The notes: generated by a model from the sequence alone, not told the origin. A stretch of 64,000 nucleotides of DNA from Synergistaceae bacterium (GCA_031257775.1 JAIROA010000033.1:1321-65320), one strand, 5' to 3'. Shown: positions 7,526-50,926, counted from the stretch's first letter. A program made the numbers and translations.

Positions 7526-7554
7526 GATGCCCTCCTTGCTTCAGGTTCATAATT

Positions 7555-8307: not shown

Positions 8308-8451
8308 AAAGCTACCCCCTTCAAAAAAGTTTATGCCGGTTTGAAATCAAATGCCTAAATGGCGAACGTAAAAAGCGATGCCTGCGCGCCCTCTTCTTCG
8401 CCGTTAACGCCCTTATGAGATCAGTTTGACACTAGATTCAATGCTTTCCCG

Positions 8452-8940: not shown

Positions 8941-8942
8941 GG

Positions 8943-9578
8943 CTAAAGCACCCCCAATTTAGAGAGCAGCGTCTCAAGCGACCCTGGATCCGGTATCATG
9001 ATGAGCGTACCGCCAAGATCCTCATCCAAATCCTTTACATGGAGGTTCGTTTTGACGAGCATCGCGGAGTCGCCGATTACGCCAAACATCGACGCGACAA
9101 GATCCATTATCGAGCCCAGCATGTCCCTGGCCACTGCTGGCGCCGTTGTGGGAAGCACCCAGCCGGTTATCATCGAAAGAGCGTTCAGAAAAGCGCCCAG
9201 TATAATATTGCCCTGTTCAGCAAGGGCGCTGTTCCGTATCTGAAGCCGCGTCTCCTCATCCATCCCTGACAGATCCATGGGAATGATAAGGTTGGCAAGC
9301 ATGTCTGCCTTAAACTCCTCTATCATGAAAATCAGACTGCAGGAGAAGTTCTCTTCTGTGCGGACCAGCACTGCGCATACAGGGGTCTCGGGAGACCCGT
9401 AATGCGCTGAAACCTCATATATTGGAACAAGCTCAGCCACAGGGACGTCCATATCCACTATACGCTCCAAAAGACGGGAAAGCGCGGTAGCCGCGTTTCC
9501 GGTTCCGATATTTCCGATCTCCTTGATAGCGTCCATGTGAATACTTGTAAACTCAGAAGTAGGATCCATGGCACCCAA
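8943..9578 (-). CDS. cheC: CheY-P phosphatase CheC
   Basis: Has the CheC motif D-x3-E-x2-N in DAIKEIGNIGTGNAATALS, with a second pseudo-repeat later in the protein. Confidence 0.85.
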   Translation of the reverse strand: MGAMDPTSEFTSIHMDAIKEIGNIGTGNAATALSRLLERIVDMDVPVAELVPIYEVSAHYGSPETPVCAVLVRTEENFSCSLIFMIEEFKADMLANLIIPMDLSGMDEETRLQIRNSALAEQGNIILGAFLNALSMITGWVLPTTAPAVARDMLGSIMDLVASMFGVIGDSAMLVKTNLHVKDLDEDLGGTLIMIPDPGSLETLLSKLGVL

Positions 9579-9610
9579 CAGCCTTTCTTATTTGGTTTTG
9601 GAAACGGCTT

Positions 9611-11695
9611 CTATAGCGACGCCGCGTCTAAAATGAGCGCTACGTTGCCATCCCCGAGTATGGTCGCCCCGGCTATGCCCTTCACCTTGAGAAGGAGCTT
9701 GCCAAGAGGCTTGATGACTATTTCCTGCTGCCCTACGAAGGCGTCTACCAGAAAGCCTACTCGTGAGTGGTCGCGGCCTACTCTCACCACCACGACGGGA
9801 TTTTCCTCAACATCCGGCCTTTCGCCCGGCGTCCCGATGATCCCGGAGAGATCCGAGAGCGGCAGTATCTCGCCTCTGACCGTCGTCACCGGCGTGCCAT
9901 GAACGTATTTGATATCTTTTTTATGCACGAGGAGCGTCTCCTCGACGTTTTCCAGCGAAATGGCGTAGGTCTCGTCTCCAACCTTTATCAAAAGGGCAAG
10001 CACTATCGCCAGAGTCAAGGGAAGGCGTATGATGACCCTGGTTCCAGCGCCGAATTTCGAGTACATCATGAACTGCCCGCCGAGCGACTCGACCTTGTTT
10101 TTGACAGCGTCCGTCCCGACCCCGCGCCCTGAAATCTCAGTGATGCTGTCGTTCGTGCTGAAACCCGGCAGCATGACAAGCTGGACGGCTTCGTTCTCTG
10201 TCATCACGGCAGCCTGTTCGTTCGTAATCAGTCCGCGTTCCAGAGCCTTTTGCTTGACTTTTTCAGTGTTGACCCCCGCGCCATCGTCACGGACTTCGAT
10301 AATGACGCCGTTGCCCTCCTGATAAGCCGCTACCGTTATCGTTCCCTGGCGAGGCTTGCCAGACTGCTCCCTTTCGTCCGGGGATTCTATTCCGTGGTCG
10401 AGCGAGTTCCTGAGGATATGCACCATCGGGTCGCCTATCTCGTCTATGACGGTGCGGTCAAGCTCTGTTTCGGCGCCCTCGACCACGAGCTGGATATCCT
10501 TGCTCATCTGGCGCGAAAGATCCCTCACGAGTCTCGGAAGCCTGTCGAACACCATCGAAACCGGAACCATGCGCAGCTTCGTCACAAGTTCCTGTATATC
10601 GCCTGAAATTCTGCCCAGCTGCGACAGGGGCTCCTGAAACGCCTTGAGCCTGGATTCCTGCACGAGCCTCTCTATCCTCGCGCGCCCAATGACAAGCTCT
10701 CCGACAAGGTTCATCAGCTTATCGAGACGCCCTATATCAACCCTCACGGTCCGGCTTCCCACCTGATGCCCCTGCTGTTTATGCTCGGCGGCGGGCTTCG
10801 GGCTTTCCTTGGAAGGCTCATTCGAAGCGGCTGCCGCAGGCGGTTTCCCTGGTTCTTTTTGGGCCGGTTCGTCCGGCTCGGACGAGGCCTCAGGCATCTC
10901 GTCCGGAAGGGTGATTTCCGTCCCTACCACCTCCTCGACTTCGCCTACCTTTGCTATCTGGCCTGTGAACGTCTCAATGGGATTGCTCGACGCTACGTAA
11001 ATCGTAAACGTCTTATCGAACGCTTCCTTTTCGAGATCCTCGACGCTTGGCTCGGCCTTGATTATGTCACCGTTATCCCCGATGATCGTCACGACCATGA
11101 AAGCCCGCGCCGCGCGAAGCATGCAACTGTCATCAAGCGTGACCTTGAGCTCGTAGACCTGCATCCCGGCGTGCGTGGCGGATTTTATCCAGTCACGCTC
11201 CTGCTCCGAGAGGTTCAGGCCGCCATTGTCGGACGCCTCTTTGGAAACATCCGCATCCTGAGCGGCTATGGAAGCCGCTTTTTCCAGCGCTGGCTCCTCG
11301 CCGGGGTTATCCCTGCGCGCGTGCAGGATCTTGATAAGCTCATCGGACGGCACATCCTGGTCAGCCCCGCCGTTCCTGATGGAATCCACCATAGCAGTCA
11401 GCGTGTCCAGGCATTTGAACAGCACGTCGACGTCATCGGACGTCAAAAGCATCGTTCCGGATCTGACTAGCCCCAGCAGGTCTTCCATAGAGTGCGTAAG
11501 TGTCGCCATCGTCTGAAAGCCCATGGTAGCGGACATTCCCTTGAACGTGTGCGCCACCCTGAATATTTCATTGATTATGTCCATATCGCTCTGGTTCTGC
11601 TCAGCGGAGAGCAGAAGCTCGTTTAGGTGTGCCAGGTTATCTCCGGCCTCGTCTAAAAAGGCGCCCATATACTGGTTTAAATCCAAATCAGCCAT
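9611..11695 (-). CDS. cheA: chemotaxis histidine kinase CheA
   Basis: Hpt domain (AHTFKGMSATMGF), HATPase (DDGAGV, GRGVGTD) and a C-terminal CheW-like domain. Confidence 0.95.
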   Translation of the reverse strand: MADLDLNQYMGAFLDEAGDNLAHLNELLLSAEQNQSDMDIINEIFRVAHTFKGMSATMGFQTMATLTHSMEDLLGLVRSGTMLLTSDDVDVLFKCLDTLTAMVDSIRNGGADQDVPSDELIKILHARRDNPGEEPALEKAASIAAQDADVSKEASDNGGLNLSEQERDWIKSATHAGMQVYELKVTLDDSCMLRAARAFMVVTIIGDNGDIIKAEPSVEDLEKEAFDKTFTIYVASSNPIETFTGQIAKVGEVEEVVGTEITLPDEMPEASSEPDEPAQKEPGKPPAAAASNEPSKESPKPAAEHKQQGHQVGSRTVRVDIGRLDKLMNLVGELVIGRARIERLVQESRLKAFQEPLSQLGRISGDIQELVTKLRMVPVSMVFDRLPRLVRDLSRQMSKDIQLVVEGAETELDRTVIDEIGDPMVHILRNSLDHGIESPDEREQSGKPRQGTITVAAYQEGNGVIIEVRDDGAGVNTEKVKQKALERGLITNEQAAVMTENEAVQLVMLPGFSTNDSITEISGRGVGTDAVKNKVESLGGQFMMYSKFGAGTRVIIRLPLTLAIVLALLIKVGDETYAISLENVEETLLVHKKDIKYVHGTPVTTVRGEILPLSDLSGIIGTPGERPDVEENPVVVVRVGRDHSRVGFLVDAFVGQQEIVIKPLGKLLLKVKGIAGATILGDGNVALILDAASL

Positions 11696-37572: not shown

Positions 37573-37798
37573 AAAATCAAACCTCCGCTCTTACTGATAA
37601 AGCAACATACGGGACGCAAAAACATACGAAATAACTTTCTAAAAAAGGCAGAAGAGACATGAGAATGCGTATACCCACATCACAGCCTTATTTTCCGCTT
37701 CTTCTTAGATATGTCAATATGAAAATGCCTTTTCTTTGCATTTATGAATCGAGGAATAAGCTCGCAGCGTCGTGCGTGGCCTGAGATTCAGATATTTT

Positions 37799-37829
37799 TT
37801 GACAATACTCCTGGGAATTGTTGTATAAT
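37799..37829 (+). promoter_or_regulatory. candidate sigma-70 promoter for nifS-nifU-MOSC
   Basis: TTGACA (37799-37804) and TATAAT (37824-37829). By my count the spacer is 19 nt, which is longer than optimal. Confidence 0.4.
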
Positions 37830-37866
37830 ATATATCGGTTGTGAAATTTGCATAGAGGTGATAGAG

Positions 37867-39033
37867 GTGGAAACACGGAAAGTTTATCTTGACAACTCTG
37901 CCACCGCTTCGGTGGCAGAAGAGGTATTAAGCGCCATGCTGCCGTATTTCAGGGAGAGCATGGGCAATCCGAACAGCCTGCACTCGTGGGGGCGGGACGC
38001 GCGGCGGGCTGTCGACGAGGCGAGGGAGAGCGTGTCCGCGCTCATCGGCGCTTCTCCGAACGAGATAGTGTTCACAGGCGGCGGAAGCGTCTCCGACAAC
38101 CTCGCGATAAAGGGCGCCGTCTGGAGCGCGAAAGAAGAGAAAAAGCACATAATCACTTCCGCCGTGGAACACCACGCCGTTCTCGACACATTCAAGTGGC
38201 TGGGCAAGAGGGGCTGCGACGTTACGTTCCTGCCGGTCGACGAATACGGCATGACAAGCCCTGAGTCGCTCGCCAGCGCCATAAGAAGCGATACGCTCCT
38301 GGCAAGCGTGATGTACGCGAACAACGAGGTCGGCACGATAAACCCCATAGCGAAGCTGGGCGGAATATGCCGCGAAAAGGGCGTGCTGTTCCACACGGAC
38401 GCCGTGCAGGCGGCGGGGCATATCCCCATTGACGTAAAGGAGCTGCCCGTCGACATGATGACGATGTCCGCTCACAAGATGTACGGCCCGAAGGGCATCG
38501 GGGCTCTTTATATCCGCAAGGGCATAAAGCTCACTCCGCTCGTCCACGGAGGGGGGCAGGAATTCGGCCTCTACTCCGGGACGGAGAACGTGCCGTCCAT
38601 AGTCGGAATGGGAGCTGCCGCGAGAATAGCGCTCAAGCTTCACGAGGCCGGGGAGGCGCGGCGAGTCGCGGAGCTGCGTGATATGCTGCTAGACGGCATA
38701 ACTGCCCGCATCCCGGATTCTTTCGTCACGGGGCACAGGACGGAGCGCCTGCCGTACCACGCCAGCGTCTGCGTGAAACGCGTCGAGGGCGAGGGGATGC
38801 TGCTTCGGATGGACTTCGCGGGCATAGGCGTATCGAGCGGCAGCGCGTGCACGTCAGGCAGCCTGGAGCCAAGCCACGTTCTGCTGGCCATGGGGCTCGA
38901 CCACGCGACGGCGCACGGTTCCGTGCGCCTGACGCTCAGCATCGACACGGTCCGCGACGACATAGAATACGTTTTGGAAAAGTTCCCTCCGATAGTGGAG
39001 ACGCTTAGAAAAATGTCTCCATATAAAGGATAA
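37867..39033 (+). CDS. nifS: cysteine desulfurase (NifS/IscS class)
   Basis: VYLDNSATASV, the PLP-Lys context SAHKMYGPKGIGALY, and the active-site loop SSGSACTSG. I prefer GTG 37867, which follows AGAGGTG, over the longest ORF start at 37744. Confidence 0.9.
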   Translation: METRKVYLDNSATASVAEEVLSAMLPYFRESMGNPNSLHSWGRDARRAVDEARESVSALIGASPNEIVFTGGGSVSDNLAIKGAVWSAKEEKKHIITSAVEHHAVLDTFKWLGKRGCDVTFLPVDEYGMTSPESLASAIRSDTLLASVMYANNEVGTINPIAKLGGICREKGVLFHTDAVQAAGHIPIDVKELPVDMMTMSAHKMYGPKGIGALYIRKGIKLTPLVHGGGQEFGLYSGTENVPSIVGMGAAARIALKLHEAGEARRVAELRDMLLDGITARIPDSFVTGHRTERLPYHASVCVKRVEGEGMLLRMDFAGIGVSSGSACTSGSLEPSHVLLAMGLDHATAHGSVRLTLSIDTVRDDIEYVLEKFPPIVETLRKMSPYKG

Positions 39034-39057
39034 AGGGCGAGGACAGGGGGAGGAAAA

Positions 39058-39528
39058 ATGTATAACGAAAAAGTCGTGGATTATTTCATGAACCCGCGCA
39101 ATGTCGGTTCCCTTCCCGATGCCAACGGCATTGGAGAAGTGGGCAACCCGCGATGCGGGGATGTCATGAAGATTTATCTGGACGTGGATGAAAACGAAGT
39201 GATAAAGGACGTCAGGTTCGAGACATTCGGATGCGCGGCCGCGATAGCGACTAGCTCGATGGCCACTGAGATGGTGAAGGGCTTGACGCTAGACGAAGCG
39301 CTTAAAGTGACGAACAAGGACGTGGCGGGAGAGCTTGGAGGGCTCCCTCCGCAGAAGCTGCACTGTTCCCTCTTAGCTGAGGAAGCCCTGCGGGCGGCCA
39401 TCCTGGACTACCGCAGCCGCAAGGACGGGACGGCACCGGCAAGCGGATGCGCGGGCTGCTGCAACGCCTGCACGGAGTACGAGGAAGACGAGAGCTACGT
39501 GTCGGAGATGTCGAGAGTTGCCGATTGA
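39058..39528 (+). CDS. nifU: Fe-S cluster assembly scaffold NifU/IscU-like
   Basis: Three scaffold cysteines in NPRCGDVM, FETFGCAAAIATSS and KLHCSLLAEEAL. Has a Cys-rich C-terminal extension (GCAGCCNAC). Confidence 0.9.
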   Translation: MYNEKVVDYFMNPRNVGSLPDANGIGEVGNPRCGDVMKIYLDVDENEVIKDVRFETFGCAAAIATSSMATEMVKGLTLDEALKVTNKDVAGELGGLPPQKLHCSLLAEEALRAAILDYRSRKDGTAPASGCAGCCNACTEYEEDESYVSEMSRVAD

Positions 39529-39973
39529 CGGGAATATCCCTCCTGGCAGGGTGATAGCGGTCTGCGTTTCCTCTTCGAAAGGCACGGTCAAGCAGAACGT
39601 CGGAAGCGGAAAGCTCATAGAGGAGTATGGAATCGAAGGGGACGCGCACGGCGGCTTCGCTCACAGGCAGGTGAGCCTCATCGCGTCCGAGGACATCGAG
39701 ACTATGAGGGCAAAGCTGCCGGATCTTGAGCCTGGAAGTTTCGCGGAGAACATCACGACCGAAGGCTTCGATCTTTCAGCGCTTGCGCTCGGGAACAGGA
39801 TTTCGGTGGGCGATTGCCTCTTAGAGGTGAGCCAGATCGGCAAAGAGTGCCATACGAAGTGCCAGGTATTCCAGAAAACGGGCGACTGCATCATGCCTAA
39901 AAAAGGGATATTTTGCCGCGTTATAAAGGGAGGCGCAGTGCGGACCGGAGACGTCATAGCTTTTTCAGCCTAA
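39518..39973 (+). CDS. MOSC domain-containing protein
   Basis: 151 aa. GIEGDAHGG ... RQVSLIASE ... ENITTEG ... GDCLLEVSQIGKECH is a MOSC beta-barrel signature with a conserved Cys. Overlaps the nifU end by 11 nt. Confidence 0.8.
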   Translation: MPIDGNIPPGRVIAVCVSSSKGTVKQNVGSGKLIEEYGIEGDAHGGFAHRQVSLIASEDIETMRAKLPDLEPGSFAENITTEGFDLSALALGNRISVGDCLLEVSQIGKECHTKCQVFQKTGDCIMPKKGIFCRVIKGGAVRTGDVIAFSA

Positions 39974-40010
39974 AAAAGCCTCTTGCAACGTCATCTAGAA
40001 CGATTTGACG

Positions 40011-40029
40011 GCCCCGCAAGGGGCTTTTT
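40011..40029 (+). terminator. intrinsic terminator after the MOSC gene
   Basis: GCCCC-GCAA-GGGGC followed by TTTTT. Confidence 0.7.
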
Positions 40030-40059
40030 AAATTCACGGTTGAAGAAACGAGGTTTGCG

Positions 40060-41133
40060 ATGATACGGCTCGATTGCGTAAGCAAAATTTTCAAAGTGAG
40101 CGAACCAGGCAGCGCTTCAAAAAAAGACTTTCACGCCCTGCGCGATGTCTCGCTTGAGATAGAAAACGGCTCGATCTACGGCATAATCGGCCGCAGCGGC
40201 GCCGGAAAGAGCACATTAATCAGATGCGTCAACCTGCTGGAGCGCCCCACTGCTGGCAGGGTGTTCATAAACGGCGTCGAGATGACCTCGCTGAAAGAGG
40301 CAAAGCTCCGGGCGGCAAGAAGGAAAATAGGCATGATCTTCCAATCCTTCAACCTGCTGGCGAACAGGACGGCATTCGGGAACATCGCGTTCCCCCTTGA
40401 GCTGGAACGCTGGACCAGGCAGGATATAGCCGACAGGGTACATGAGATAGCGGCGCTCGTCGGCATCACGGACAAGCTCGACCAATATCCCTCGCAGCTC
40501 TCCGGCGGGCAGAAACAGAGGATCGGCATCGCGAGGGCATTAGCGAACCGCCCCGACCTGCTGCTCTCCGATGAGGCCACATCCGCCCTCGACCCGCAGA
40601 CCACGAAGTCCGTGCTTACGCTCCTCAAGGACATAAACGACAAGCTCGGGCTTACCGTAATCCTGATCACTCACGAGATGGACGTGATAAAGGAGATATG
40701 CGACTCTGTGGCGGTGCTGGACTCTGGCGAGATCGTGGAGGAAGGCCCGGTTCTCAAGATCTTCACGGCGCCGATAAAGAGCGTCACGAAGGAACTTCTG
40801 GCACATGTGCTAAGGACGCGGCTTCCTGACTCGCTCGCCGGCCTCGAGTTCACACGGGAGCGCGGAAACCGCCAGGCGGACGTGCTGCTCCGGCTTTCGT
40901 TCTTCGGCAATGTCGCCGCGCAGCCGATAATTTCGGATATCGTCCGTAAATTTGACGTGGACGTGAACATCCTGGCCGCACAGCTCGACCATGTCAGGAC
41001 GACCCCATACGGGACGATCGTCGTGCAGCTCTCAGGAGGGGACAGGGAGGAAGCTATCGAGTACCTGCTGGATTTGAATCTGAAAGCCGAGGTGATGGGA
41101 TATGTCGCAAGATCTGGCGACATTACTTATTAA
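40060..41133 (+). CDS. metN: methionine ABC transporter ATP-binding protein MetN
   Basis: Walker A GRSGAGKST, signature LSGGQKQR, Walker B LLLSDEATSALD, and a C-terminal NIL domain. Confidence 0.9.
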   Translation: MIRLDCVSKIFKVSEPGSASKKDFHALRDVSLEIENGSIYGIIGRSGAGKSTLIRCVNLLERPTAGRVFINGVEMTSLKEAKLRAARRKIGMIFQSFNLLANRTAFGNIAFPLELERWTRQDIADRVHEIAALVGITDKLDQYPSQLSGGQKQRIGIARALANRPDLLLSDEATSALDPQTTKSVLTLLKDINDKLGLTVILITHEMDVIKEICDSVAVLDSGEIVEEGPVLKIFTAPIKSVTKELLAHVLRTRLPDSLAGLEFTRERGNRQADVLLRLSFFGNVAAQPIISDIVRKFDVDVNILAAQLDHVRTTPYGTIVVQLSGGDREEAIEYLLDLNLKAEVMGYVARSGDITY

Positions 41134-41764
41134 AGGACTTGCCGATACACTATATATGATAGGAGCGTCTTCAGCGATATCGTTTCTGTTCGGCCTGCCG
41201 CTTGGGGTCATTCTCTCCGTCACCGCGCCCGGCGGGATACTTATGAACAGGACTCTTTACAGCTCGCTCTCCTTGCTGGTCAACGTCGGCAGATCAGTAC
41301 CGTTCATAATCCTGATGGTGGCGATAATACCGTTCACGAGGCTCATCGCAGGCACATCCATCGGGACTAACGCCGCCATCGTGCCTCTTTCCGTCTCCGC
41401 TATCCCTTTTGTGGGCAGAGTGGTTGAGACTGCCCTGCGCGAGATAGACGACGGCATAATAGAAGCCGCGCTCGCTATGGGCGCCTCCCCGTTCGAAATC
41501 ATCAGGAAGGTCCTCCTGCCGGAAGCGCTTCCCTCCATAATCTCAGGGCTCACGCTAACCGTAATAAGCCTTATAGGCTACTCGGCGATGGCCGGTGCCA
41601 TAGGCGGAGGGGGGCTGGGCGACATAGCCATCCGCTACGGGTACCAGCGCTTCATGCCGGACGTGATGCTCGCGACGGTCATCGTTCTTGTGCTGATGGT
41701 GCAGCTCTTTCAGTTTGCGGGCGACAGGCTTTCGGGCATCACGAGGCACGACAAAAAAAGCTAA
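41102..41764 (+). CDS. metI: methionine ABC transporter permease MetI
   Basis: 220 aa. Has the EAA-type loop (IIEAALAMGASPFEIIRKVLLPEA) and follows metN with an overlap. Confidence 0.9.
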   Translation: MSQDLATLLIKGLADTLYMIGASSAISFLFGLPLGVILSVTAPGGILMNRTLYSSLSLLVNVGRSVPFIILMVAIIPFTRLIAGTSIGTNAAIVPLSVSAIPFVGRVVETALREIDDGIIEAALAMGASPFEIIRKVLLPEALPSIISGLTLTVISLIGYSAMAGAIGGGGLGDIAIRYGYQRFMPDVMLATVIVLVLMVQLFQFAGDRLSGITRHDKKS

Positions 41765-41825
41765 AGATGATATGATACGCTCCGTGTCCGCGATACCCGG
41801 CACTTAGGATTATAGGAGTGAAGTT

Positions 41826-43211
41826 ATGAAAAACGCGCCCGACAGGACATTTATGGAAAAGGAGGCGATCTTCCGCCTCCTCGCCCGTTTCGCGGGGCCA
41901 GCCTTGATCGGGATGGTCTCAAACGCTCTTTACAACATAGTGGACAGGATTTTCGTCGGCCAGATAGTCGGGGCGCGGGGCATTGCCTCCATCGCGCTCG
42001 CGTTTCCCTGTATGCTCTTTTTCGCCTCGGCTGCGACTCTGATCGGGATCGGGGCAGCTTCGCTGATATCAATCCAGCTCGGCGAGAAAAAAAGGAAACA
42101 CGCCGAACAAACGCTTGGGAACGCGGTATTCCTGGCTATAGCGTCATCGGCGCTCTTCTGGATCATAGGGGCGCTCTTTTTTGAGAATATACTGCGCCTT
42201 TCGGGAGCAAGCGACGCCGTTCTCCCCATGGCCTCAGGATACCTGTCGATAATACTCTGCGGCATTCCGCTCGGGGTAATCGGCTTCTCGCTCTCAAATC
42301 AGATTCGGGCCTGCGGCAGCCCGCTTTACGCTATGGGAAGCCAGATGTCCGGCGCCATAGCGAACGTGATCCTGGACGCATGGTTCGTAATCGGGCTCGG
42401 GATGGGGGTGGAAGGCGCGGCTATCGCTACCGTCATCAGCCAGGGCGTCTCTATGGCCTGGTGCCTGTCATATTTCGTGACGGGCAAATCGGCGCTCCGG
42501 CTTCGCGCCATGTTCATCCTGCGCCCAAACCACCAGACCATCTACAGGATTTTCGAGATAGGGATCCCGGCTTGCATCGTGAACATGAACTTCGTCCTCG
42601 TTCACGCTTTCATCACGAACGCGTCCAGCTCCTACGGCGGCGACCTGGCGGTATCGGCCACCGGGATATTCATGAGCATGGACTCGCTGCTCTTCATGCC
42701 GGGCGTCGCCATCGCCGATGCCTGCCAGCCGATAGTAGGTTTCAACTACGGCGCCGGCAAAATCGACAGAGTGATAAGCACAGCCCTGACAGGCGTTTTG
42801 ATATCCTCGTTCTTTTACGCGGCAAGCTTCATCGCGGTCATGCTATTCGCGGATAAGATGGCTATGATCTTCAACTCGGCGGATACGGAGCTGATAGCTC
42901 TTGCCGCCAATGCCCTACGCGTAACGTACATCGGGGTGCCCGTCGCCGGCATTTCCGTCGTGACGTCATCGTTCCTGCAGGGCCTCGGAAGGGGAAAAGA
43001 CGGGCTTATCCTGGCGTTTGCGAGGTTCGGGATATTCCTATGGGGGCCTCTTCTGACTTTGCCGAAGCGTTTCGGGGTATACGGCGCGTGGGGCAGTTTC
43101 CCGGTGTCGGATGTCTGCGGCGCTATCGTGTGCGTCTTTGCGCTTATCCGCACCATTAAGGGGCTGAAAAAGGTCAGCGTGCCGATGAGCCGGATCGCTG
43201 AGACTGAATGA
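41826..43211 (+). CDS. MATE family efflux transporter
   Basis: 461 aa, about 12 TM segments. The N-terminal context (FAGPALIGMVSNALYNIVDRIFVG) is typical of MATE transporters. Confidence 0.85.
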   Translation: MKNAPDRTFMEKEAIFRLLARFAGPALIGMVSNALYNIVDRIFVGQIVGARGIASIALAFPCMLFFASAATLIGIGAASLISIQLGEKKRKHAEQTLGNAVFLAIASSALFWIIGALFFENILRLSGASDAVLPMASGYLSIILCGIPLGVIGFSLSNQIRACGSPLYAMGSQMSGAIANVILDAWFVIGLGMGVEGAAIATVISQGVSMAWCLSYFVTGKSALRLRAMFILRPNHQTIYRIFEIGIPACIVNMNFVLVHAFITNASSSYGGDLAVSATGIFMSMDSLLFMPGVAIADACQPIVGFNYGAGKIDRVISTALTGVLISSFFYAASFIAVMLFADKMAMIFNSADTELIALAANALRVTYIGVPVAGISVVTSSFLQGLGRGKDGLILAFARFGIFLWGPLLTLPKRFGVYGAWGSFPVSDVCGAIVCVFALIRTIKGLKKVSVPMSRIAETE

Positions 43212-43262
43212 CGTTTTTAAATAAATTCTAAATTCACGCATCATGGCATAGGAGGAAAGTCA

Positions 43263-44888
43263 GTGCTAATTACAGATTTTTTGAGCCGAAACGCCCTGTC
43301 AAAAGGAATGGATGTCGCGATAACTGAGATCAGCCCGAAGGCATCAGGCGGCAGTACCGTCTCCTTGAGGGAACCTGATGACACCGGAAGCTATCCAGAC
43401 AGCGCGGCGCGGCGCGAGATGACATGGGAATATTTTGACAGGCAGGCAAACAGAGTGGCTAATTTCTGCCTTAGCCGGGGGATCGGACACGGCAATAAAG
43501 CCGCAATGCTCATGATGAACTCGCTCGAATGGTTTCCCATATACTTCGGGATATTGAGAAGCGGGGCCACGGTCGTCCCGATAAGCTTCAGATACACCAA
43601 AGAAGAGGTCAGTGGCTGCCTGGAACTGACCGGCACGGACGCAATATTCTTCGGGCCTGAATTCTCCGGCATTATCGAGGACATCCACGGCAAGATCCCA
43701 GCTCTCGCCACGTATGTGTTTGTCGGGCAAGGCATCCCTGAAAACGCCGATTTCGCGCTGAACTACCGCCAGAGCGTGGGGGATTTCCCCAGCGAGGATC
43801 CTGGGGTCGATATCGCCACAGAAGACGACGCCGCGATATACTTCACGTCGGGAACAACCGGCAAGCCAAAGGCGATACTGCAGACACACGCAAGCTTAGT
43901 CTCCGTCTGCCTCACCGAGCAGAGAAACCACAGCCAGACAGAGGACGACGTATTCCTGTGCATGGCGCCGCTATTCCACACCGGCTCGATGATGCACTGG
44001 CTCGGAAGCCTCATATCGTGCGGCGGCGCCGTGCTGCTGAGAGAGCCGAAGCCCGAATCCATCCTGAACGTTGCATCCCGCGAGGGCGTGACCATCGCCT
44101 TCATGCTCGTCCCGTGGGCACAGGATCTCCTGCAGGCCCTTGAAAGCGGCAATCTCCTCCTTTCCGATTACGAACTTGGCCAATGGAGGCTCATGCACAT
44201 AGGGGCTCAGCCGGTCCCAGTCGAGCTGATCTCAAGGTGGAGAAAGTATTTCCCTGATCAGCAGTACGACACGAACTACGGTCTGAGCGAGGCAATGGGG
44301 CCAGGCTGCGTCCATCTAGGCGTGGACAACTCTCACAAGATCGGCGCGATAGGAAAGCCAGGCGAGGGGTGGCAAGCCCGGATAGTCGACGACGACGGCA
44401 ATCCGCTTCCGCAAGGGAAAATAGGCGAGCTTATCGTAAAGGGCCCGAGCGTCATGAAATGCTACTACAAAGACGAGGAATCCACGTCCCTGGCGCTTAA
44501 AGGCGGATGGCTCTTTACAGGCGACATGGGATACGTTGACGAGGATGGCTTTATATTTCTGGTGGACAGGAAGAAGGACATCATCATAAGCGGCGGCGAG
44601 AACATATTCCCCATCCAGATCGAGGATCATATCAGGCAGTTGAGCCAAGTCCTTGACGTTGCCGTCATCGGCGCATGTCATAAACGGCTCGGAGAGGTGC
44701 CGATCGCTATAGTATCGCTCAAGCCCGACTGCGAGTGCGACGAGGAGGAAATTATGGCACACTGCGAGGAACTGCCGCGCTACAAACGCCCCAGGCGCTG
44801 CATCTTTGGAGACGTGCCGAGAAACCCGACCGGCAAGATAGAAAAACCGCGCCTCAGGGCCATGTACAAAGACGCGCTATCGAATTAA
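43263..44888 (+). CDS. AMP-dependent acyl-CoA synthetase/ligase
   Basis: AMP-binding motif IYFTSGTTGKPKA, then YGLSE, GELIVKG, TGDMGYVDEDGF and a C-terminal PRNPTGKI. GTG start. Confidence 0.85.
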   Translation: MLITDFLSRNALSKGMDVAITEISPKASGGSTVSLREPDDTGSYPDSAARREMTWEYFDRQANRVANFCLSRGIGHGNKAAMLMMNSLEWFPIYFGILRSGATVVPISFRYTKEEVSGCLELTGTDAIFFGPEFSGIIEDIHGKIPALATYVFVGQGIPENADFALNYRQSVGDFPSEDPGVDIATEDDAAIYFTSGTTGKPKAILQTHASLVSVCLTEQRNHSQTEDDVFLCMAPLFHTGSMMHWLGSLISCGGAVLLREPKPESILNVASREGVTIAFMLVPWAQDLLQALESGNLLLSDYELGQWRLMHIGAQPVPVELISRWRKYFPDQQYDTNYGLSEAMGPGCVHLGVDNSHKIGAIGKPGEGWQARIVDDDGNPLPQGKIGELIVKGPSVMKCYYKDEESTSLALKGGWLFTGDMGYVDEDGFIFLVDRKKDIIISGGENIFPIQIEDHIRQLSQVLDVAVIGACHKRLGEVPIAIVSLKPDCECDEEEIMAHCEELPRYKRPRRCIFGDVPRNPTGKIEKPRLRAMYKDALSN

Positions 44889-44900
44889 TGAACTCTTGAT

Positions 44901-44961
44901 AAAAAATATCCCGCAAGCCGCCGCAAGCGCAGGCCCGGCGTTATCTCCGGGCACCTTGCGG
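44901..44961 (-). terminator. possible composite hairpin terminator at the 3' end of the 586-aa orphan gene
   Basis: CCGCAAG (44921-27) pairs with CTTGCGG (44955-61), and an inner GCCCGG (44933-38) pairs with CCGGGC (44947-52). A T6 tract lies on the minus sense at 44901-06, offset from the stem. The geometry is imperfect. Confidence 0.35.
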
Positions 44962-46701
44962 CTGCTTGCTGTCGCTCGTGACGCCAGATTTCTGCTTGAA
45001 GAAAGTCTTGAACCATTTCGACACCTCGCGCGGGAGTATCTTGTAGCCTTTGCGCTCCTTCGAAATCCACAGGAAATAGTCGTTGAAGAACGACTCCTGC
45101 AGCGCCCTGATCCCCTTGCCCTTGTTAGCTTTCAGTAACGCGTACGTGTCCTTGAGGGTTCTGTCTTCGTCGTTGTCCCACCTGAAAGCCGCCAGCGCGA
45201 AGCAAAAATCCTTGACATCCGACACCGCTGGAAATATCGGGATGATAAGGCTGTTGTCTTCCCAGTCATATACCCCCAGCCCCTGGCCAGGGACGAGTAT
45301 GACTCTCGGGATCCCGTACATCCTTATGCGGGAGGCCCTCAGCATGTCCGGATCGAGCGGGGTGAGATCCATCATTATCTCGCCGGCCCTCTGGGCGGAT
45401 ATGGGGACGCTTCTGTTCTGGCATAGCGGGGATTCGTCGAGCCTCGCCGTGTGGGCGGCAAGGAGCATGAACTCCCTTTTGTGGCTAATCCCCTCCCTGA
45501 GTTCCAGCTTCATGGCCGGGATGCCCTGCCCCTTGAATTTTTTCTTAGCCATCTCGCTCCTGGTCTTCCACCGCTCCGATTCATTCGTGACGTGGACGAT
45601 CAGCCCCGCGAGGAACTTTGTCTTGTCGTGCAGTGACAGCACGTTCTGTATTATCTTGAGGGACTGATCCAGTGCCTCGCCCTGCTCTTTTTTGTCCCGG
45701 GCCGGCGTTTCGGGCTGGTCATCGACCGAACCCTCGTAGCAGGGCGCTTCCGCCTCGGATTCTTCCCTTTCCTCGGTTTTTTGCTCCGCCGGCGCCGCTT
45801 TTTTTGCCGGAACGTCGTCTATCTCGGCAAACGGGTCAAAGGCCGCGAGCGGATCATGAGTCTCCGGCTCATCGCTTGCGGCAGGCGCCTCAGGCTGCGG
45901 CGCTTCAGGCTCGTTTGCCTTCGTGAGCTTCCTTTCGAGGCTGTCCATCAGATACCATAGCGTCCGCTCCGCTGTTTCGTAATTTTTGCAGCGTTCTTTT
46001 ATTATGCTTCTTGTCTTATTATCGGCCTCGCGAATCCGTTTCGTCCGCATGTCCGTCTCAATGGCATCATGCAGGCCCTCTTCGAGGTTCTTCAGAAGCT
46101 CGGACAGATCCTGTTTTTCTATGAGCCCCGTAGCGTTAAATAACGTATTCATGGCAAGGCGCCTTCTCGTCTGCGCCGTCCTCAGCTCGCCGTTAAAGCG
46201 TTTCAGCTTCTCATCGAGCGGCACTCCGCCGGACGGGCCGTCATAGCTCTTGCCGAATATGAGCGCGTAGTTCTCCTCCAGGTAGTCCGTCAGGCGGTTG
46301 TACTGGTACATATCGACTGCTGAGGGCTGCCCTATCTGCTCGCCAAACGACGCGTTTGGGACCGTGTACTCTGAGCATAGGTGGCCGAAATCTATAAATA
46401 GGCGCTCGGGTGGGGCGAACTCTAGCTTTTCTGGAGGGCCCGCGTCGATCTTCGCCTCCACGATAGCCCAGAGAACCTCCCAGAAATGGGCTGCTGCCTT
46501 CTGCCAGACGATGCGTGCCTTCTTGCGTGTCTCCGTGTCCGAAGCCCCGCGAAGCTTCGCCATGTTCCTGCCTAGAATCTGCATCTGCGAAGCCAGGGTG
46601 GCGACGTTTTTGTTTTCTTTCCAGTTAGCCGCTATCCAGCCGATGGCGTCGTCAATTTTTTTAAAATCGTCGGAATTTCCGCAAACCTCAGTAAGAGACA
46701 T
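44941..46701 (-). CDS. hypothetical protein, 586 aa, tripartite with acidic/Pro-rich linker
   Basis: Long ORF with a GGGGAG SD 7 nt upstream of the ATG. The antisense frames are Ser/Arg/Pro-rich shadows. No motif I can place. Confidence 0.7.
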   Translation of the reverse strand: MSLTEVCGNSDDFKKIDDAIGWIAANWKENKNVATLASQMQILGRNMAKLRGASDTETRKKARIVWQKAAAHFWEVLWAIVEAKIDAGPPEKLEFAPPERLFIDFGHLCSEYTVPNASFGEQIGQPSAVDMYQYNRLTDYLEENYALIFGKSYDGPSGGVPLDEKLKRFNGELRTAQTRRRLAMNTLFNATGLIEKQDLSELLKNLEEGLHDAIETDMRTKRIREADNKTRSIIKERCKNYETAERTLWYLMDSLERKLTKANEPEAPQPEAPAASDEPETHDPLAAFDPFAEIDDVPAKKAAPAEQKTEEREESEAEAPCYEGSVDDQPETPARDKKEQGEALDQSLKIIQNVLSLHDKTKFLAGLIVHVTNESERWKTRSEMAKKKFKGQGIPAMKLELREGISHKREFMLLAAHTARLDESPLCQNRSVPISAQRAGEIMMDLTPLDPDMLRASRIRMYGIPRVILVPGQGLGVYDWEDNSLIIPIFPAVSDVKDFCFALAAFRWDNDEDRTLKDTYALLKANKGKGIRALQESFFNDYFLWISKERKGYKILPREVSKWFKTFFKQKSGVTSDSKQPQGARR

Positions 46702-46713
46702 CCTGCCACTCCC

Positions 46714-47910
46714 CTAGAAAAAAGAACGGATGCAGGCGTGCCAGTCCTTCACATCCATTCCTCCGATCACCGAGTTTATGGTATACTGCGGGTCTTTGTC
46801 GCCGCCCAGAGAACAGGCCTCAAGGCACGTTTCCCAATCATCCCCGCTCAAGGTCACAATCCTGTCATTCTCGCCCGGAAGGCGCGTGTCCGGTATTATG
46901 CCGAATAAAACGTCGCCTGAATCGCTCACGAACCTCGTGACCTTAAAACGGCGGTCTCCAGCCCCTGTCATCTCGAATCGTTCGCGCTTCTTCATCTGGC
47001 GCGCCTCGGCAAGCTTCATGGAATCAGTGTCAAGCTCTATCTCAATCCTCGCCAGTATCGGCCACAGGCGGAGATATGCTATCAGCCTCGCTATAGCTGG
47101 ACGCCCGATTCCCGTCATGGCGTTTATGCTGTCCTCGGAACGGTACGACGCGCCAGGAAGGTATTTCCAGAAGGCCTCTCCGAAAGTATGCTCGCCGCCA
47201 AGCGACCAGTCGCTGAAGCCAAACAGAAGCCCTTTTGAAATGGGCAGAAGAAACTCGCTCCAGCGCTCCGGAGTGGCATTGATTATTTCCTTCGCGACAG
47301 GGGCATTCCTCATAGTGAACGGCAGGCACCCCTCTTTCAAGAGGAAACCGGGCCACGGCGCTTCATCGCTCTTATTGTGCTCCAGGATGGCCGCTTCGGT
47401 CTCCGTGGGGATGAAACACGGGCGCATGCACCACTTGCCCTTTTTGGGGGTGTACGCGTACCAGAGCGTGTCTTTCTTATTTTCGGCTATCAGAGTCAGG
47501 TCGGCCTCGCTCCTGGCCGCTTTCGTCGTGTGCAGGATATCGCCAAGGAGCTGGACGCCGCGCCATTCAAGGGATTTCAGCGACAGGGCCTCCTCTCCTT
47601 TAACGATGAGCGAGGCAATGCTTTCCGCTATACTGTCCATGGGGTATTCTTTTATGGATTTTCCAGCTTTGATCTTGAGGCTGCGCTCAGCGCCTTCGGC
47701 CCAAGACAGATGAACGTACTTTTTTTTGTTCGTGTTCGTGTTGAATATGCCAAGCCTCGGAAGGCTGTCGCTTCTTACCAGGAGAAGCGTAAGGTCGTCA
47801 TCCATAACTTCCTCAGCGATTACCGATAGATCAGCGCCGGTTGCCAAAAAAATCACCTCAATGCCATTTAGTAACTTAGCAATACATCTCTGCAAAACGC
47901 AGGGGATCAT
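46714..47910 (-). CDS. hypothetical protein, about 360-398 aa
   Basis: Long ORF 12 nt upstream of the 586-aa gene. The start is ambiguous among ATG 47910 (no SD), TTG 47847 (after GAGGTG) and ATG 47805 (after GAGGAA). No recognisable domain. Confidence 0.65.
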   Translation of the reverse strand: MIPCVLQRCIAKLLNGIEVIFLATGADLSVIAEEVMDDDLTLLLVRSDSLPRLGIFNTNTNKKKYVHLSWAEGAERSLKIKAGKSIKEYPMDSIAESIASLIVKGEEALSLKSLEWRGVQLLGDILHTTKAARSEADLTLIAENKKDTLWYAYTPKKGKWCMRPCFIPTETEAAILEHNKSDEAPWPGFLLKEGCLPFTMRNAPVAKEIINATPERWSEFLLPISKGLLFGFSDWSLGGEHTFGEAFWKYLPGASYRSEDSINAMTGIGRPAIARLIAYLRLWPILARIEIELDTDSMKLAEARQMKKRERFEMTGAGDRRFKVTRFVSDSGDVLFGIIPDTRLPGENDRIVTLSGDDWETCLEACSLGGDKDPQYTINSVIGGMDVKDWHACIRSFF

Positions 47911-47950
47911 ATGTCATTAAACAGGAGGTTCGCAACGGCCATTACGCTTA

Positions 47951-47988
47951 AAAATCAACGAAAGAGCCGAACCCGTAGGGCCCGGCTC
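47951..47988 (-). terminator. intrinsic terminator downstream of rpsU
   Basis: Minus-sense sequence is GAGCCGGGCCC-UAC-GGGUUCGGCUC, an 11-bp stem with two G-U pairs (47964-47988). It is followed by UUUCGUUGAUUUUU. Confidence 0.6.
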
Positions 47989-48024
47989 CTGAATTATCAC
48001 AAAAAAACCGGCGAAGCTTCGGCC

Positions 48025-48210
48025 CTAATCCACTCTCCTGTGCTTATTGCGAACGGAGGCCGCCTTCTTGCGTTTTTTAATTTCGCTAGGTTTTTCATAA
48101 TGCTCGTGTTTACGGGCCTCTCTTAGCACTCCTACCTTCCGGAGTTCCCGTTTGAATCGCTTCAGAGCATCCTCTATCGTCTCGTTTTCCCGTCGAACAA
48201 CGCTGGTCAT
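48025..48210 (-). CDS. rpsU: 30S ribosomal protein S21
   Basis: MTSVVRRENETIEDALKRFKRELRKVGVLREARKHEHYEKPSEIKKRKKAASVRNKHRRVD. Start at ATG 48210 after GGGAGGGGGG. The longer track ORF, which extends to 48372, is an upstream extension. Confidence 0.9.
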   Translation of the reverse strand: MTSVVRRENETIEDALKRFKRELRKVGVLREARKHEHYEKPSEIKKRKKAASVRNKHRRVD

Positions 48211-48332
48211 CTCATGTCCCCCCCTCCCGTTTGTGCCGGTCGAGCATAAATAATAACGCAACCTCTTGCCCAACTGTCCGCCCCAAAGCGGTACACCTTC
48301 CAACATGGGGACGCACTCTTCACATAGGTATT

Positions 48333-49352
48333 TTAACCCAGCTTTTGATCCCGCACAATAGCAGAGGCCCACACCCTTACCACGGGAGACTTATGCTCTG
48401 TCATTATTTTATTTATAGCCGGCATAAACCACATGGGTATTTTCTCCTTTTTCATCAGCCGCAAAAGCGGAACGAGTATGGATTCATCATCCTTTTTGAT
48501 GAGCCCGAGCAAATCAACCGACTCCGGCAGGCTCTGGTCAAGGGGCCATCCGTTCAGCGCGGCGGCAATCACGGAATTAACAGGGTGAGAGAGAAACGGC
48601 ACGAAGAATTCCTTCGGGACGTTCTGCCTCCTGAACCATTTTAGCACCATCATGGAATCGGCCGGGGAAAAACCGCCCGAATGAGAGGCCAGCGCCCTGG
48701 CAAGGTCTTTTGACATTGACGGCGCGGAAAAGAGCGAAAGAAGGCTCTCCAGTATCTCAGAGGAGGGCGCATGCCTCGTAAAGTGATCCACGACGGCCCT
48801 CCTCATGTCGTTAGTGGCGTCGCGGGAGGATATGCTTCGCAGCGCCAGCATCACGACGCCAGGGTGCCTGCTTCTCAGCCTCCGCAGAATTGCCTCGATC
48901 CGGCTGCTGGCCTTCATCTCGCCCCGGTGGGAGAAAATACCCTGCATCTCAAACTCCGCCCTCGATATGACGCTGCCAAGGAAACGCACCCTTGCCGGCG
49001 GCAGATCGTAGTCAAACTGCTCTTTCTCGTGACTTTTCTTCACTGCCGCGCCGAACAGGTTCTTCCAAAAGGCCTTAAAAACCGACTCCTTAGCCTTGCC
49101 CGTCGCGGGCTGCGCCTGACGGCGCTCTTCCTGCCCGGCCTGCCGGTTTCTGGGCCGCCTGGATGGCGCCCGCGACACAGTCTCCTTAAGGGTCATGTAA
49201 GCCTCGGTTATTTCCGAAAACTTCCTTGCCCCGTCAGGACCCGCAATGTCGGGGTGATACGTGCGGGCAAGATGCCTGAACGCCGATTTGATCTCGTCCC
49301 AGCTTGCGTCGGCACTAAGGCCTAGAATTTTGAAGTTCGCGTTTGAGTTCAT
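48333..49352 (-). CDS. J-domain protein with HEAT/ARM-like C-terminal repeats (non-canonical DnaJ-like)
   Basis: J domain NFKILGLSADASWDEIKSAFRHLARTYHPDIAG with the HPD motif. It has no Gly/Phe region or zinc-finger CxxCxGxG repeats. The C-terminal helical repeats include a HEAT-like HKSPVVRVWASAIV. Start at ATG 49352 overlaps the upstream stop as ATGA. Confidence 0.8.
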   Translation of the reverse strand: MNSNANFKILGLSADASWDEIKSAFRHLARTYHPDIAGPDGARKFSEITEAYMTLKETVSRAPSRRPRNRQAGQEERRQAQPATGKAKESVFKAFWKNLFGAAVKKSHEKEQFDYDLPPARVRFLGSVISRAEFEMQGIFSHRGEMKASSRIEAILRRLRSRHPGVVMLALRSISSRDATNDMRRAVVDHFTRHAPSSEILESLLSLFSAPSMSKDLARALASHSGGFSPADSMMVLKWFRRQNVPKEFFVPFLSHPVNSVIAAALNGWPLDQSLPESVDLLGLIKKDDESILVPLLRLMKKEKIPMWFMPAINKIMTEHKSPVVRVWASAIVRDQKLG

Positions 49353-50926
49353 GGCGAGACCACCTGCTCTATCTCCGCGATCATCCTGTCTATCACTTCG
49401 AGAGCCTGCCACTGCAGCGCGCTGTCCTCATTCCGCAGCGAACGGGCCTCCGTGACGATTATTCCAAGGCGCTGCTGAAAATTATCGGGAAACGACATCG
49501 AAAGGCGCGCCAGGCGGTCTTCCCTCACGCGCAGCTCTGAGGCAATGTCGCAGGGCATGATGCCTGACGCGTCCGTCTCGAGCGATATCGTCTTTCTGCT
49601 CGTTTTTCTCTTTCTCTTTACCTCGACATGGAGAAGGCCTCCGCCGTCAACCCTGAAAAAAACCTCCACTATCTCGCCGTCCTTCACGTTGTCTACGTAG
49701 AGCGTCTGCAATACCCTGTTGAGGCTTTTGACTCTCCCCTCTCCCTGCACGATCGTCACTTCCAGGCTGCCGTTGCCATACGCGGTAAAGCTTCTCTTTG
49801 CCTCGGCGGGAAGAGGGATTCCCCTGCCGAGTATCTGAACTACCCCGCCGTCAACGTTCATCACGCCGAGGCTGCGGCTCAGGACATCAATGAGAAGCCG
49901 TTCTCTCCCCTGGTTCGCGTAAAGCGCGGTGCCAGTGACTACGGCGTCCTCTGGGGACGAACGGAGGCGCTCGGGATCCTTTACTTTAGCCGCCAGGGTA
50001 TCGCGAAGGAGCGGTATGCGCCCGCTGCCCCCCACGACCAGCAGTTTCTGCGGATTATGCCTTCTCCACATGCGGGAAACCATGCCTGCCACCTCGTCGA
50101 TCACCGGGCGGATGAGCATTTCAAACTCCTGCCGTGAAATTTCGATGGACCGTTCCCGCGACGATAAGCCGGCGGGAATCCTCCATGTCACGCTCCCTGT
50201 GCTGCTCAAGGCTATTTTCACTCCCTCGGCTTCCCTCATCATGAGGGAGCCTCTGGGATCCTCAGCCCTGGAGAACGGTATGCCTGCCCTCCTGCACATC
50301 CGGTCGGCAAGAAGCCTGTCCAGATCATAGCCCCCTATGTCCTTCCTGCCTTTGCTCTCTATGACCTGGAATATCCCGCGCTCGCCCTCGACTAAAGAGA
50401 GGTCGAGCGTCCCGGCGCCAAAATCTATGATGAGGAATCTGCCATCCATGCCTATAGAGAGGGCTGCCGCGGTCGGCTCGTTCACTATCCTGATTTTCTC
50501 GAACCCGGCGCTCTGCGCGGCCCTAGCCAGCGCGCCGCGCTCCGGGAAGCTGAAATGTGCCGGGACCGCCAGTACGCACGACGAGACGAAAGCCCCCAGA
50601 TAGGCCTCAGCGTCCTCCCGCAAGAGGCATATCATAGGAATCAGAAGCTCTTCGGGCGTGTAGGTTCTCCCGCCCATGCGGGCAACCCAGTCCGTGCCAA
50701 GATGACGCTTCATATCCCACCACGCGACCTGCGGATCGGTAAGGGCGATCTTCGCGGCGTCCTCGCCCGCAATCAGGCCGTCGCTCGACACGGCGACCAT
50801 AGATGAGGTTCTAGTGTTCCCCCATCTGTTGCGTATGAGCGAGACTCCCTTTCCGGGCATATCGACCGCAAGCTGGGCGTACCTCGTCCCGAGGTCGACT
50901 CCTACGACAATTTCTTCCACCAACAC
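49349..50926 (-). CDS. non-canonical Hsp70-family ATPase (DnaK paralog, 525 aa)
   Basis: Actin-like ATPase motifs VGVDLGTRYAQLAV, IVNEPTAAALS, IIDFGAGTLDLSLV and LLVVGGSGRIPLLRD. SBD-like IDVLSRSLGV ... VTIVQGEG. The helical lid is short. Start is GTG/TTG at 50920-50926 after AAGGAG. Confidence 0.85.
   Translation of the reverse strand: MLVEEIVVGVDLGTRYAQLAVDMPGKGVSLIRNRWGNTRTSSMVAVSSDGLIAGEDAAKIALTDPQVAWWDMKRHLGTDWVARMGGRTYTPEELLIPMICLLREDAEAYLGAFVSSCVLAVPAHFSFPERGALARAAQSAGFEKIRIVNEPTAAALSIGMDGRFLIIDFGAGTLDLSLVEGERGIFQVIESKGRKDIGGYDLDRLLADRMCRRAGIPFSRAEDPRGSLMMREAEGVKIALSSTGSVTWRIPAGLSSRERSIEISRQEFEMLIRPVIDEVAGMVSRMWRRHNPQKLLVVGGSGRIPLLRDTLAAKVKDPERLRSSPEDAVVTGTALYANQGRERLLIDVLSRSLGVMNVDGGVVQILGRGIPLPAEAKRSFTAYGNGSLEVTIVQGEGRVKSLNRVLQTLYVDNVKDGEIVEVFFRVDGGGLLHVEVKRKRKTSRKTISLETDASGIMPCDIASELRVREDRLARLSMSFPDNFQQRLGIIVTEARSLRNEDSALQWQALEVIDRMIAEIEQVVSP

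Follow-up and report, generated by a model that had tools for sequence, protein, structure and literature searches.

A predicted two-gene operon of termite-gut Synergistaceae joins a lineage-specific protein to a member of an uncharacterised multi-phylum family

Zincins have a core in which a helix, three strands and two further helices follow one another, and the ImmA/IrrE (COG2856, Peptidase_M78) and SprT-like proteins are small proteases of this type. A degenerate COG2856-like domain occurs in a Mycobacterium tuberculosis regulator (6cz6/6d2s), and we take it to be a zincin-like module that binds a ligand and does not cleave peptides. Other described systems rely on modular control, including the cyclic-nucleotide-monophosphate (cNMP)-regulated effectors of the CRP/PKA type, in which a sensor is joined to an output domain, and the eukaryotic DPF/FxDxF motifs on adaptor appendage domains. 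Here we compare these systems with two adjacent minus-strand genes, X (upstream) and Y (downstream), that lie on the chromosome of a termite-gut Synergistaceae bacterium (GCA_031257775.1, JAIROA010000033.1:1321-65320). The stretch of 64,000 nucleotides (nt) that was analysed is hereafter referred to as the window, and all positions are those of the whole window. As judged from its sequences, the uncharacterised family to which Y belongs is an old one with members in at least four bacterial phyla, and it combines a helical stalk with an alpha/beta C-terminal domain (C-domain) of about 140 residues. X is a soluble multi-domain alpha/beta protein confined to one Synergistaceae lineage.

The C-domain resembles the ImmA/IrrE and SprT-like zincins in the order of its secondary-structure elements (residues 436-547 of Y). 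It differs from them in that Y has neither HExxH nor a conserved His/Glu ligand set, gives no Pfam or PDB sequence signal, and carries a stalk of about 430 residues that is missing from those small proteases. Unlike ImmA/IrrE, Y also has no adjacent XRE-type repressor gene, and a regular-expression search for ImmA-like HExxH proteins found none in all fetched loci. The M. tuberculosis regulator ranks second and third among the Foldseek matches of Y in the PDB (non-significant), and the role proposed for the Y C-domain is presumably of the same kind; however, Y has no helix-turn-helix (HTH) and no conserved cluster Cys, and the two architectures are unrelated. The likeness to cNMP-regulated effectors lies in two distant Y relatives (P0223 and P0226), where two N-terminal cNMP-binding domains stand ahead of the Y core, which suggests that this core is able to act as an output module under regulation, whereas Y of the window has no sensor domain. 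With the adaptor appendage motifs, Y would share a short aromatic-acidic motif placed in a long, variable, acidic and disordered segment, for which X may be the new folded partner; the analogy is one of mechanism only and implies no homology.

Operon structure and conservation of X and Y

The original prediction described two minus-strand open reading frames (ORFs) 12 nt apart, and both were found in the ORF listing of the window, at 46714-47910 (398 amino acids, aa) and 44941-46701 (586 aa). The spacer (46702-46713, minus strand) holds the Shine-Dalgarno sequence (SD) of Y, as the TAG of X is followed directly by GGGGAG (46713-46708), then by 7 nt and by the Y ATG at 46701. The same TA(A/G)GGGAGTGG...ATG layout is repeated at the X-Y junction of another locus (L031), and other loci have equally short spacers. 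Two forms of Y are found: a linker of about 75 residues, acidic and variable in sequence, is present in all 70 long-form proteins and missing from the short forms of 475 aa. Of the 23 long-form loci from other genomes, about 20 have X next to Y, compared with none of the 58 short-form loci, and the X-Y gaps, the shortest of which is -1 (a TGATG overlap), do not exceed a few tens of nt. The two genes are kept together across at least seven upstream and at least eight downstream contexts. The marks of a bicistronic operon, namely a common strand, a short spacer with its own SD and an adjacency retained across rearrangements, are thus all present in the sequence. These results indicate that X and Y are real, conserved genes in a predicted bicistronic operon of their own, with the rpsU hairpin on one side and their own terminator-like hairpin on the other. 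The earlier suggestion that they are co-expressed is supported by the same gaps and contexts, and we regard a shared operon and a shared function as very likely.

The boundaries of this unit are also visible in the sequence. The strong hairpin reported between rpsU and the pair is a candidate terminator of 13 base pairs (GC-rich, 8 G-C of 13 pairs; 47962-47990, minus strand) followed by a U-rich tract, and it appears in both the minimum-free-energy and the centroid folds. A terminator-like hairpin with a T-run (44910-44927, minus strand) lies 14 nt beyond the stop codon of Y. The GC content of X-Y (0.55-0.57) is similar to that of the flanks, and a scan of 44000-49000 with Rfam returned nothing.

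Gene X proved shorter than the 398 aa first assigned to it, which come from an over-extended ORF. We place its start at TTG 47847 and not at ATG 47910, because orthologous loci (L011, L015, L018, L026 and L031) have an in-frame stop 2-4 codons ahead of the conserved N-terminus LA(T/A)G(A/E)D.., because the NCBI protein that is 100% identical to X has 377 aa (P0092, from a Synergistaceae metagenome-assembled genome (MAG), locus tag LBG29_02190), and because a -35/-10-like site (TTGCGA-18-TATGAT, 47935-47906) overlaps the non-conserved ATG 47910. Gene X therefore spans 46714-47847 (minus strand) and encodes 377 aa, with its SD (GAGGTG, 47859-47854) 6 nt before the start. The -35/-10-like site (47906-47935, minus strand) is a sigma-70-like promoter candidate for X-Y and its position is compatible with the TTG start downstream; it is a consensus match only, in a region with 2 such matches against 1.9 expected from shuffled sequence.

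Homologues of X and of Y number about 90-100 cluster representatives each, all annotated 'hypothetical' and nearly all from Synergistaceae/Synergistales MAGs, so that both genes are conserved in related genomes. The description of the pair as orphan is accordingly wrong for Y, which occurs in several phyla, and only loosely right for X, which is limited to one lineage.

The Y family and its C-domain

A profile search with Y recovered 240 representatives (50% identity clusters) at E<=1e-3, including 69 at E<=1e-30. The named members are from Synergistota, Planctomycetota, Fibrobacteria and Elusimicrobiota, and distant members such as P0216, P0263, P0296 and P0309 align with Y over the whole length. 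Y of the window (44941-46701, minus strand, 586 aa) is a long form, and the short form is found in Thermanaerovibrio velox, Fretibacterium fastidiosum, Dethiosulfovibrio and Aminobacteriaceae. Besides the cNMP-binding domains mentioned above, we found C-terminal tetratricopeptide repeats (TPRs) in 9 of 40 family members, an N-terminal transmembrane helix in P0247, P0253 and P0288, and two tandem C-domains in one polypeptide in P0207 and P0213. Because the Y core is fused to cNMP sensors, to TPRs or to a membrane anchor, or is duplicated, it may be a regulated effector or adaptor module. One Planctomycetota MAG carries two paralogues of the family, P0278 (HY722_03145) and P0299 (HY722_08365). 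Another protein, P0081, combines an XRE-type HTH with Y residues from about 390 to 586 on an NCBI contig of 2958 nt. It was considered as an ImmR/ImmA-type fusion and set aside as probably a chimeric assembly or a disrupted gene; the Y part begins abruptly after the HTH and a truncated C5 DNA methyltransferase N-terminus (FSGIGAFE).

The AlphaFold2 (AF2) model of Y (alignment of 85; predicted local distance difference test (pLDDT) 83.9, predicted template-modelling score (pTM) 0.79) has helices at 10-260, disorder at about 269-332, a long helical hairpin at 334-418 and an alpha/beta domain at 436-570, and is ordered over 334-570. The tripartite organisation read earlier from the sequence, with a helical N-terminal part, an acidic linker and a C-terminal domain, is thus recovered in the model. 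On the minus strand, residues 1-261 (45919-46701) form the helical N-terminal region (pLDDT >88), with a motif F95..E99.L101.ID104FG106 that is kept in the A1 and A2 alignments and reads LxFxxxExLxIDFG in the A4 consensus. Residues 262-335 (45697-45918) form the disordered linker, which is specific to long-form Y, has a net charge of -17 and falls below pLDDT 50 over about 269-332. Residues 336-430 (45412-45696) make up the second half of the stalk, predicted as helices 334-388 and 394-418. Residues 431-572 (44986-45411) are the conserved C-domain of about 140 aa, in which helices are followed by three strands (466-491), a helix (495-509) and more helices.

To define conserved positions, 119 distant members were aligned to the Synergistota profile, with an overall identity of 16-20%. 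Despite this divergence, a set of polar and aromatic residues in the C-domain is retained in most of them: D450 (97%), Y478 (91%, always aromatic), D479 (87%), R507 (83%), D509 (79%), D511 (94%), Y542 (97%), W545 (80%) and E549 (88%). The conserved G463, P465, P471, G474, P488 and G552 are structural, and F564 is conserved across the superfamily as well. The consensus of the domain runs PGxGNGxYDWxxN...P, then YRWDxDE, then KDYxxWxTKExxGY..L..E.R.WF. The fact that an Arg, two Tyr and four carboxylates have been retained suggests a functional site, and from the conservation of D450, Y478, D479, R507, D509, D511, Y542 and E549 we infer a putative ligand-binding, metal-binding or catalytic pocket. 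One point weighs against this reading: the conserved residues could instead be structural or form a protein-protein interface.

Neither X nor Y can be placed in a known family by sequence, or by predicted structure as compared with the PDB and BFVD. Searches of Pfam, NCBIfam, PADLOC and PHROGs with both proteins gave no match at E<0.01; in PADLOC-DB 2.0 X matched nothing and the best match of Y was Cas11f (E 0.049, over a coiled-coil segment), PHROGs had no match to either below E 0.5, and no DnaJ or GrpE signal was found in either with Pfam and NCBIfam. IMG/VR held no relatives of X or Y in viral contigs. Against PDB sequences, phmmer with the single X and Y sequences found nothing significant, and profiles built from the Synergistota alignments and from 28 aligned Y C-domains of several phyla gave chance-level matches only (tropomyosin, ApoE, rotavirus VP4 and an LPXTG protein). 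When each member was scanned against Pfam at E<=10 (40 Y-family proteins, 80 X proteins and 28 C-domains), the only domains detected were accessory ones, TPRs and cNMP-binding domains, in some of the distant relatives of Y. Foldseek searches against 350,542 PDB chains with both models, and against BFVD with the Y model, returned nothing at E<0.1. Profile and structure searches over these libraries therefore yielded no confident match to a characterised family. The sequences of X and Y contain no Walker A, HExxH or CxxC and no transmembrane segment (peak 19-residue Kyte-Doolittle values 1.17 and 1.53, below 1.6), and their isoelectric points are acidic. This agrees with the earlier statement that neither protein has a transmembrane segment, Walker A or a family signature, and the two products are predicted to be soluble and are presumably cytoplasmic.

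Several local similarities were followed up and rejected. The CPR-C4 protease (7ob6) resembles Y over 28 residues (E 0.2-0.3), is absent from the Foldseek matches, and has its His aligned with a variable position of Y. A HAD-like DxDxT reading of D511-E-D-R-T was dropped as T515 lacks conservation and the element preceding the segment is a helix, not a strand. The DDDLT motif of X sits in a beta-hairpin turn. Pol-beta nucleotidyltransferase G[GS]...DxD, DEDDy exonuclease, ART R-S-E and Toprim signatures were dropped on inspection of motif spacing, order or secondary structure.

Zincin-type proteins were the only specific Foldseek matches of Y, in both the PDB and BFVD. The top specific matches were PprI/IrrE (8sln, E 1.3) and the M. 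tuberculosis regulator (6cz6/6d2s, E 1.4-2.2) in the PDB, and a PBS1 IrrE-N-like protein (E 0.64) and a phage SprT-like protein (E 1.1) in BFVD, all of them non-significant. A degenerate zincin-like fold is thus the sole structural lead for Y, and a weak one. On this basis the C-domain might be a divergent zincin-like (IrrE/ImmA/SprT) domain that acts as a non-peptidase ligand or peptide sensor, or as a carboxylate-based metallohydrolase, with access controlled by the stalk and X. In its favour, residues 436-547 run through a helix, three strands, a long helix and a helix in an order similar to the zincin core, and the conserved R507-x-D509-x-D511 closes the helix that would hold the active site. 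However, the matches have E 0.6-2.2, probabilities of 0.2-0.44, target TM-scores of 0.21-0.35 and root-mean-square deviations of 7-16 A, HExxH is missing and no His or Cys is conserved in the family, no zincin Pfam family appears at E<=10 in 40 full-length or 28 C-domain members, and the PDB profile search found none. We therefore consider this explanation rather unlikely.

A nuclease reading of the C-domain was also weighed. The pattern D479-x15-D495-x-K497, which the original prediction proposed as compatible with a PD-(D/E)xK-like core, is present in Y of the window, and the interpretation as such a core did not hold. The segment around D495 varies within Synergistota (SDVK, GEHK, SAER or GEDK), D495 and K497 fall below the conservation threshold across the 119 distant members, the AF2 model puts them at the N-terminus of helix 495-509 and not in a beta-strand, and no nuclease occurs among the Foldseek matches of Y. 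A broader version would make X-Y a nucleic-acid-targeting or defence module with Y as its nuclease, in keeping with the variable context of the pair between genomes and with a weak PADLOC match (PDC-M61B, E 1.8e-4) of the neighbouring Hsp70-like protein. Against it, X and Y themselves lack any PADLOC or PHROG match below E 0.01, Y is a stand-alone gene among housekeeping genes in distant phyla, and both the native GC content and the missing IMG/VR relatives speak against a defence or phage origin, which leaves this alternative extremely improbable.

Gene X and the linker of long-form Y

The AF2 model of X (alignment of 80; pLDDT 92.6, pTM 0.91) shows an N-terminal beta-rich module (8-69), a helical hairpin, a mixed alpha/beta middle part and a C-terminal four-stranded sheet with helices. 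The profile search with X detected 98 proteins, all of them at least 41% identical and restricted to Synergistaceae, and hmmsearch --max found no distant homologue in the ORFs of the fetched loci. A Foldseek match of X to the beta2-adaptin appendage (E 1.0, probability 0.14) was discarded as noise. Within the linker of Y, we found a short linear motif, FDPFAEI (residues 288-294; 45820-45840, minus strand), from the conservation of columns in the 70 long forms. The FDPFxEI positions are retained in most of these proteins (F288 in 61, D289 in 70, P290 in 61, F291 in 69, E293 in 65 and I294 in 62) and the flanks are variable; the AF2 confidence at the motif is slightly higher than in the rest of the linker. 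Judging from the genomes compared, X is an addition peculiar to one lineage and goes together with the insertion of the linker in Y.

These findings suggest the following scenario. Most lineages would use Y on its own. In a single Synergistaceae lineage, the stalk would have gained the FDPFxEI-bearing linker (about 75 residues, acidic and disordered), and a new gene, X, would have arisen directly upstream. X may then act as a subunit peculiar to this lineage that attaches to Y, probably by way of the linker motif (or the stalk), and modulates or localises it, and the C-domain with its conserved pocket would be the working end of the protein. Taken as a whole, this picture of an X-Y complex, with X docked on the stalk or on FDPFxEI and the C-domain as functional end, is tentative, and we see it as quite possible and still short of probable. 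Several observations weigh against it. X is not beside Y in three long-form loci (L021, L027 and L032), and at least one of these three genomes encodes X elsewhere (LBE65_03910, LBE65_06585); tight coupling of the two genes is thus not obligatory. The most divergent long-form Y (P0071, locus L028) has an acidic linker and an adjacent X without a clear FDPF. Moreover, the role proposed for the linker motif is drawn from co-occurrence, and the binding of X to Y is putative. A bolder proposal holds that the C-domain is an unrecognised enzymatic or ligand-sensing fold in at least four phyla, controlled by cyclic nucleotides in some of them, and that X was recruited through a eukaryote-style FDPFxEI in the new linker. 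We judge it unlikely; if true, it would represent a datable bacterial complex born when a motif in a disordered linker and a new gene arrived jointly.

Genomic neighbourhood and implications

The Hsp70-like and J-protein genes that had been noted upstream of the pair are indeed there, and the order mtaB, Hsp70-like, J, rpsU, X, Y is found in the window and in 10 further Synergistaceae loci (Y identity 62%-81%). This recurrence would fit a four-gene module in which X and Y are clients, co-chaperones or substrates of the non-canonical Hsp70/J pair. However, rpsU and the strong hairpin separate the two pairs, and other X-Y contexts have no Hsp70/J within 8 kb: the pair stands beside UPF0182 in L005 and L025 and between alkaline phosphatase and MatE in L007, and it has at least four more such contexts. 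The Hsp70/J neighbourhood is limited to 10 long-form loci and is absent from all 58 short-form Synergistota loci and from the loci of distant phyla. As the contexts of X-Y range so widely, the adjacency to Hsp70/J reflects local synteny and not a conserved module, so that a functional link is not supported and the module is highly improbable. Comparison of gene neighbourhoods thus upholds the co-occurrence of X and Y with each other, and finds none with Hsp70/J beyond local synteny.

Translation-related neighbours could be taken as a sign that Y is a translation- or ribosome-associated housekeeping factor with X as an accessory. Such neighbours include rpsU in the window, rpsT (L009), infB (L008) and an NFACT/RqcH-like gene directly downstream of Y in L006. 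A distant clade adds 14-18 metagenome loci with miaA upstream of the gene and der(engA)-gpsA downstream (names by reading sequences). Yet each association is limited to one clade with no neighbour common across clades, translation genes are abundant in housekeeping regions so that chance adjacency is likely, and the searches found no RNA-binding or GTPase feature. This reading is therefore very unlikely. Among the loci compared, no partner of Y is common to several clades, and UPF0182 occurs in 4 loci.

The individual settings of Y differ between clades. In T. velox, Y stands alone and is divergent from UPF0182; this membrane-protein gene is at 7130-9883 in that short-form locus (L001), and it is divergent from X-Y in L005 (3889-6702) and L025. 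In that part of Synergistota, Y may originally have been located beside UPF0182. Neighbours confined to the Fretibacterium/rumen clade are SIR2 (upstream of Y), a methyltransferase gene and a metA-like gene (downstream of Y). In Planctomycetota and an unclassified bacterium, Y lies among secDF/tyrA/pdxJ or murJ/fba. The distant metagenome loci (L091-L144) contain a lipoprotein-like gene (18 loci), the Y-like gene, der/engA (14), gpsA (13), a MerR-like gene (10) and a divergent upstream miaA (9), again named by reading sequences. The NFACT_N gene, related to RqcH-like ribosome quality control, follows Y closely on the same strand in L006 (9849-11489, plus strand) and in L016, which represent one species only.

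The genes around X-Y in the window were also inspected. The Hsp70-like gene (49349-50926, minus strand, 525 aa) scores about 200 bits, against DnaK/HscA equivalog cut-offs of 650-820. The J-protein ORF (48333-49412, minus strand) is over-extended, as its L006 orthologue starts 4 nt before the Hsp70-like stop (ATGA overlap); the start in the window is then ATG 49352 (MNSNANF...), which gives 339 aa. The J domain match covers only residues 27-82, and the C-terminal part of about 270 residues has no Pfam match. In L006 a canonical dnaJ lies upstream of prmA, so that the Hsp70/J of the window is an extra pair inside a dnaJ-prmA-rsmE-mtaB ... rpsU string. The rpsU ORF (48025-48372, minus strand) has 115 aa from GTG, and the real gene runs from ATG 48210 to 48025 (S21 domain, 61-aa orthologues). 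Downstream of Y on the opposite strand is a housekeeping run (37744-44888, plus strand), whose genes were identified by eye from translations. It comprises cysteine desulfurase-like and IscU/NifU-like genes, a small MOSC-like ORF, a MetN/MetI-type ABC transporter, a MATE efflux gene and an acyl-CoA synthetase-like gene that is convergent with Y.

Overall, X and Y at present stand as a well-documented pair of conserved hypothetical proteins, not as a demonstrated new system or mechanism. The Y family has no Pfam or NCBIfam model and no structural neighbour in the PDB or BFVD, and its conserved polar site would merit biochemistry if the proposed pocket holds. If the link between X and the linker holds as well, the pair would offer a clean evolutionary case of a lineage-specific gene and a motif-bearing linker arising together in an ancient protein.

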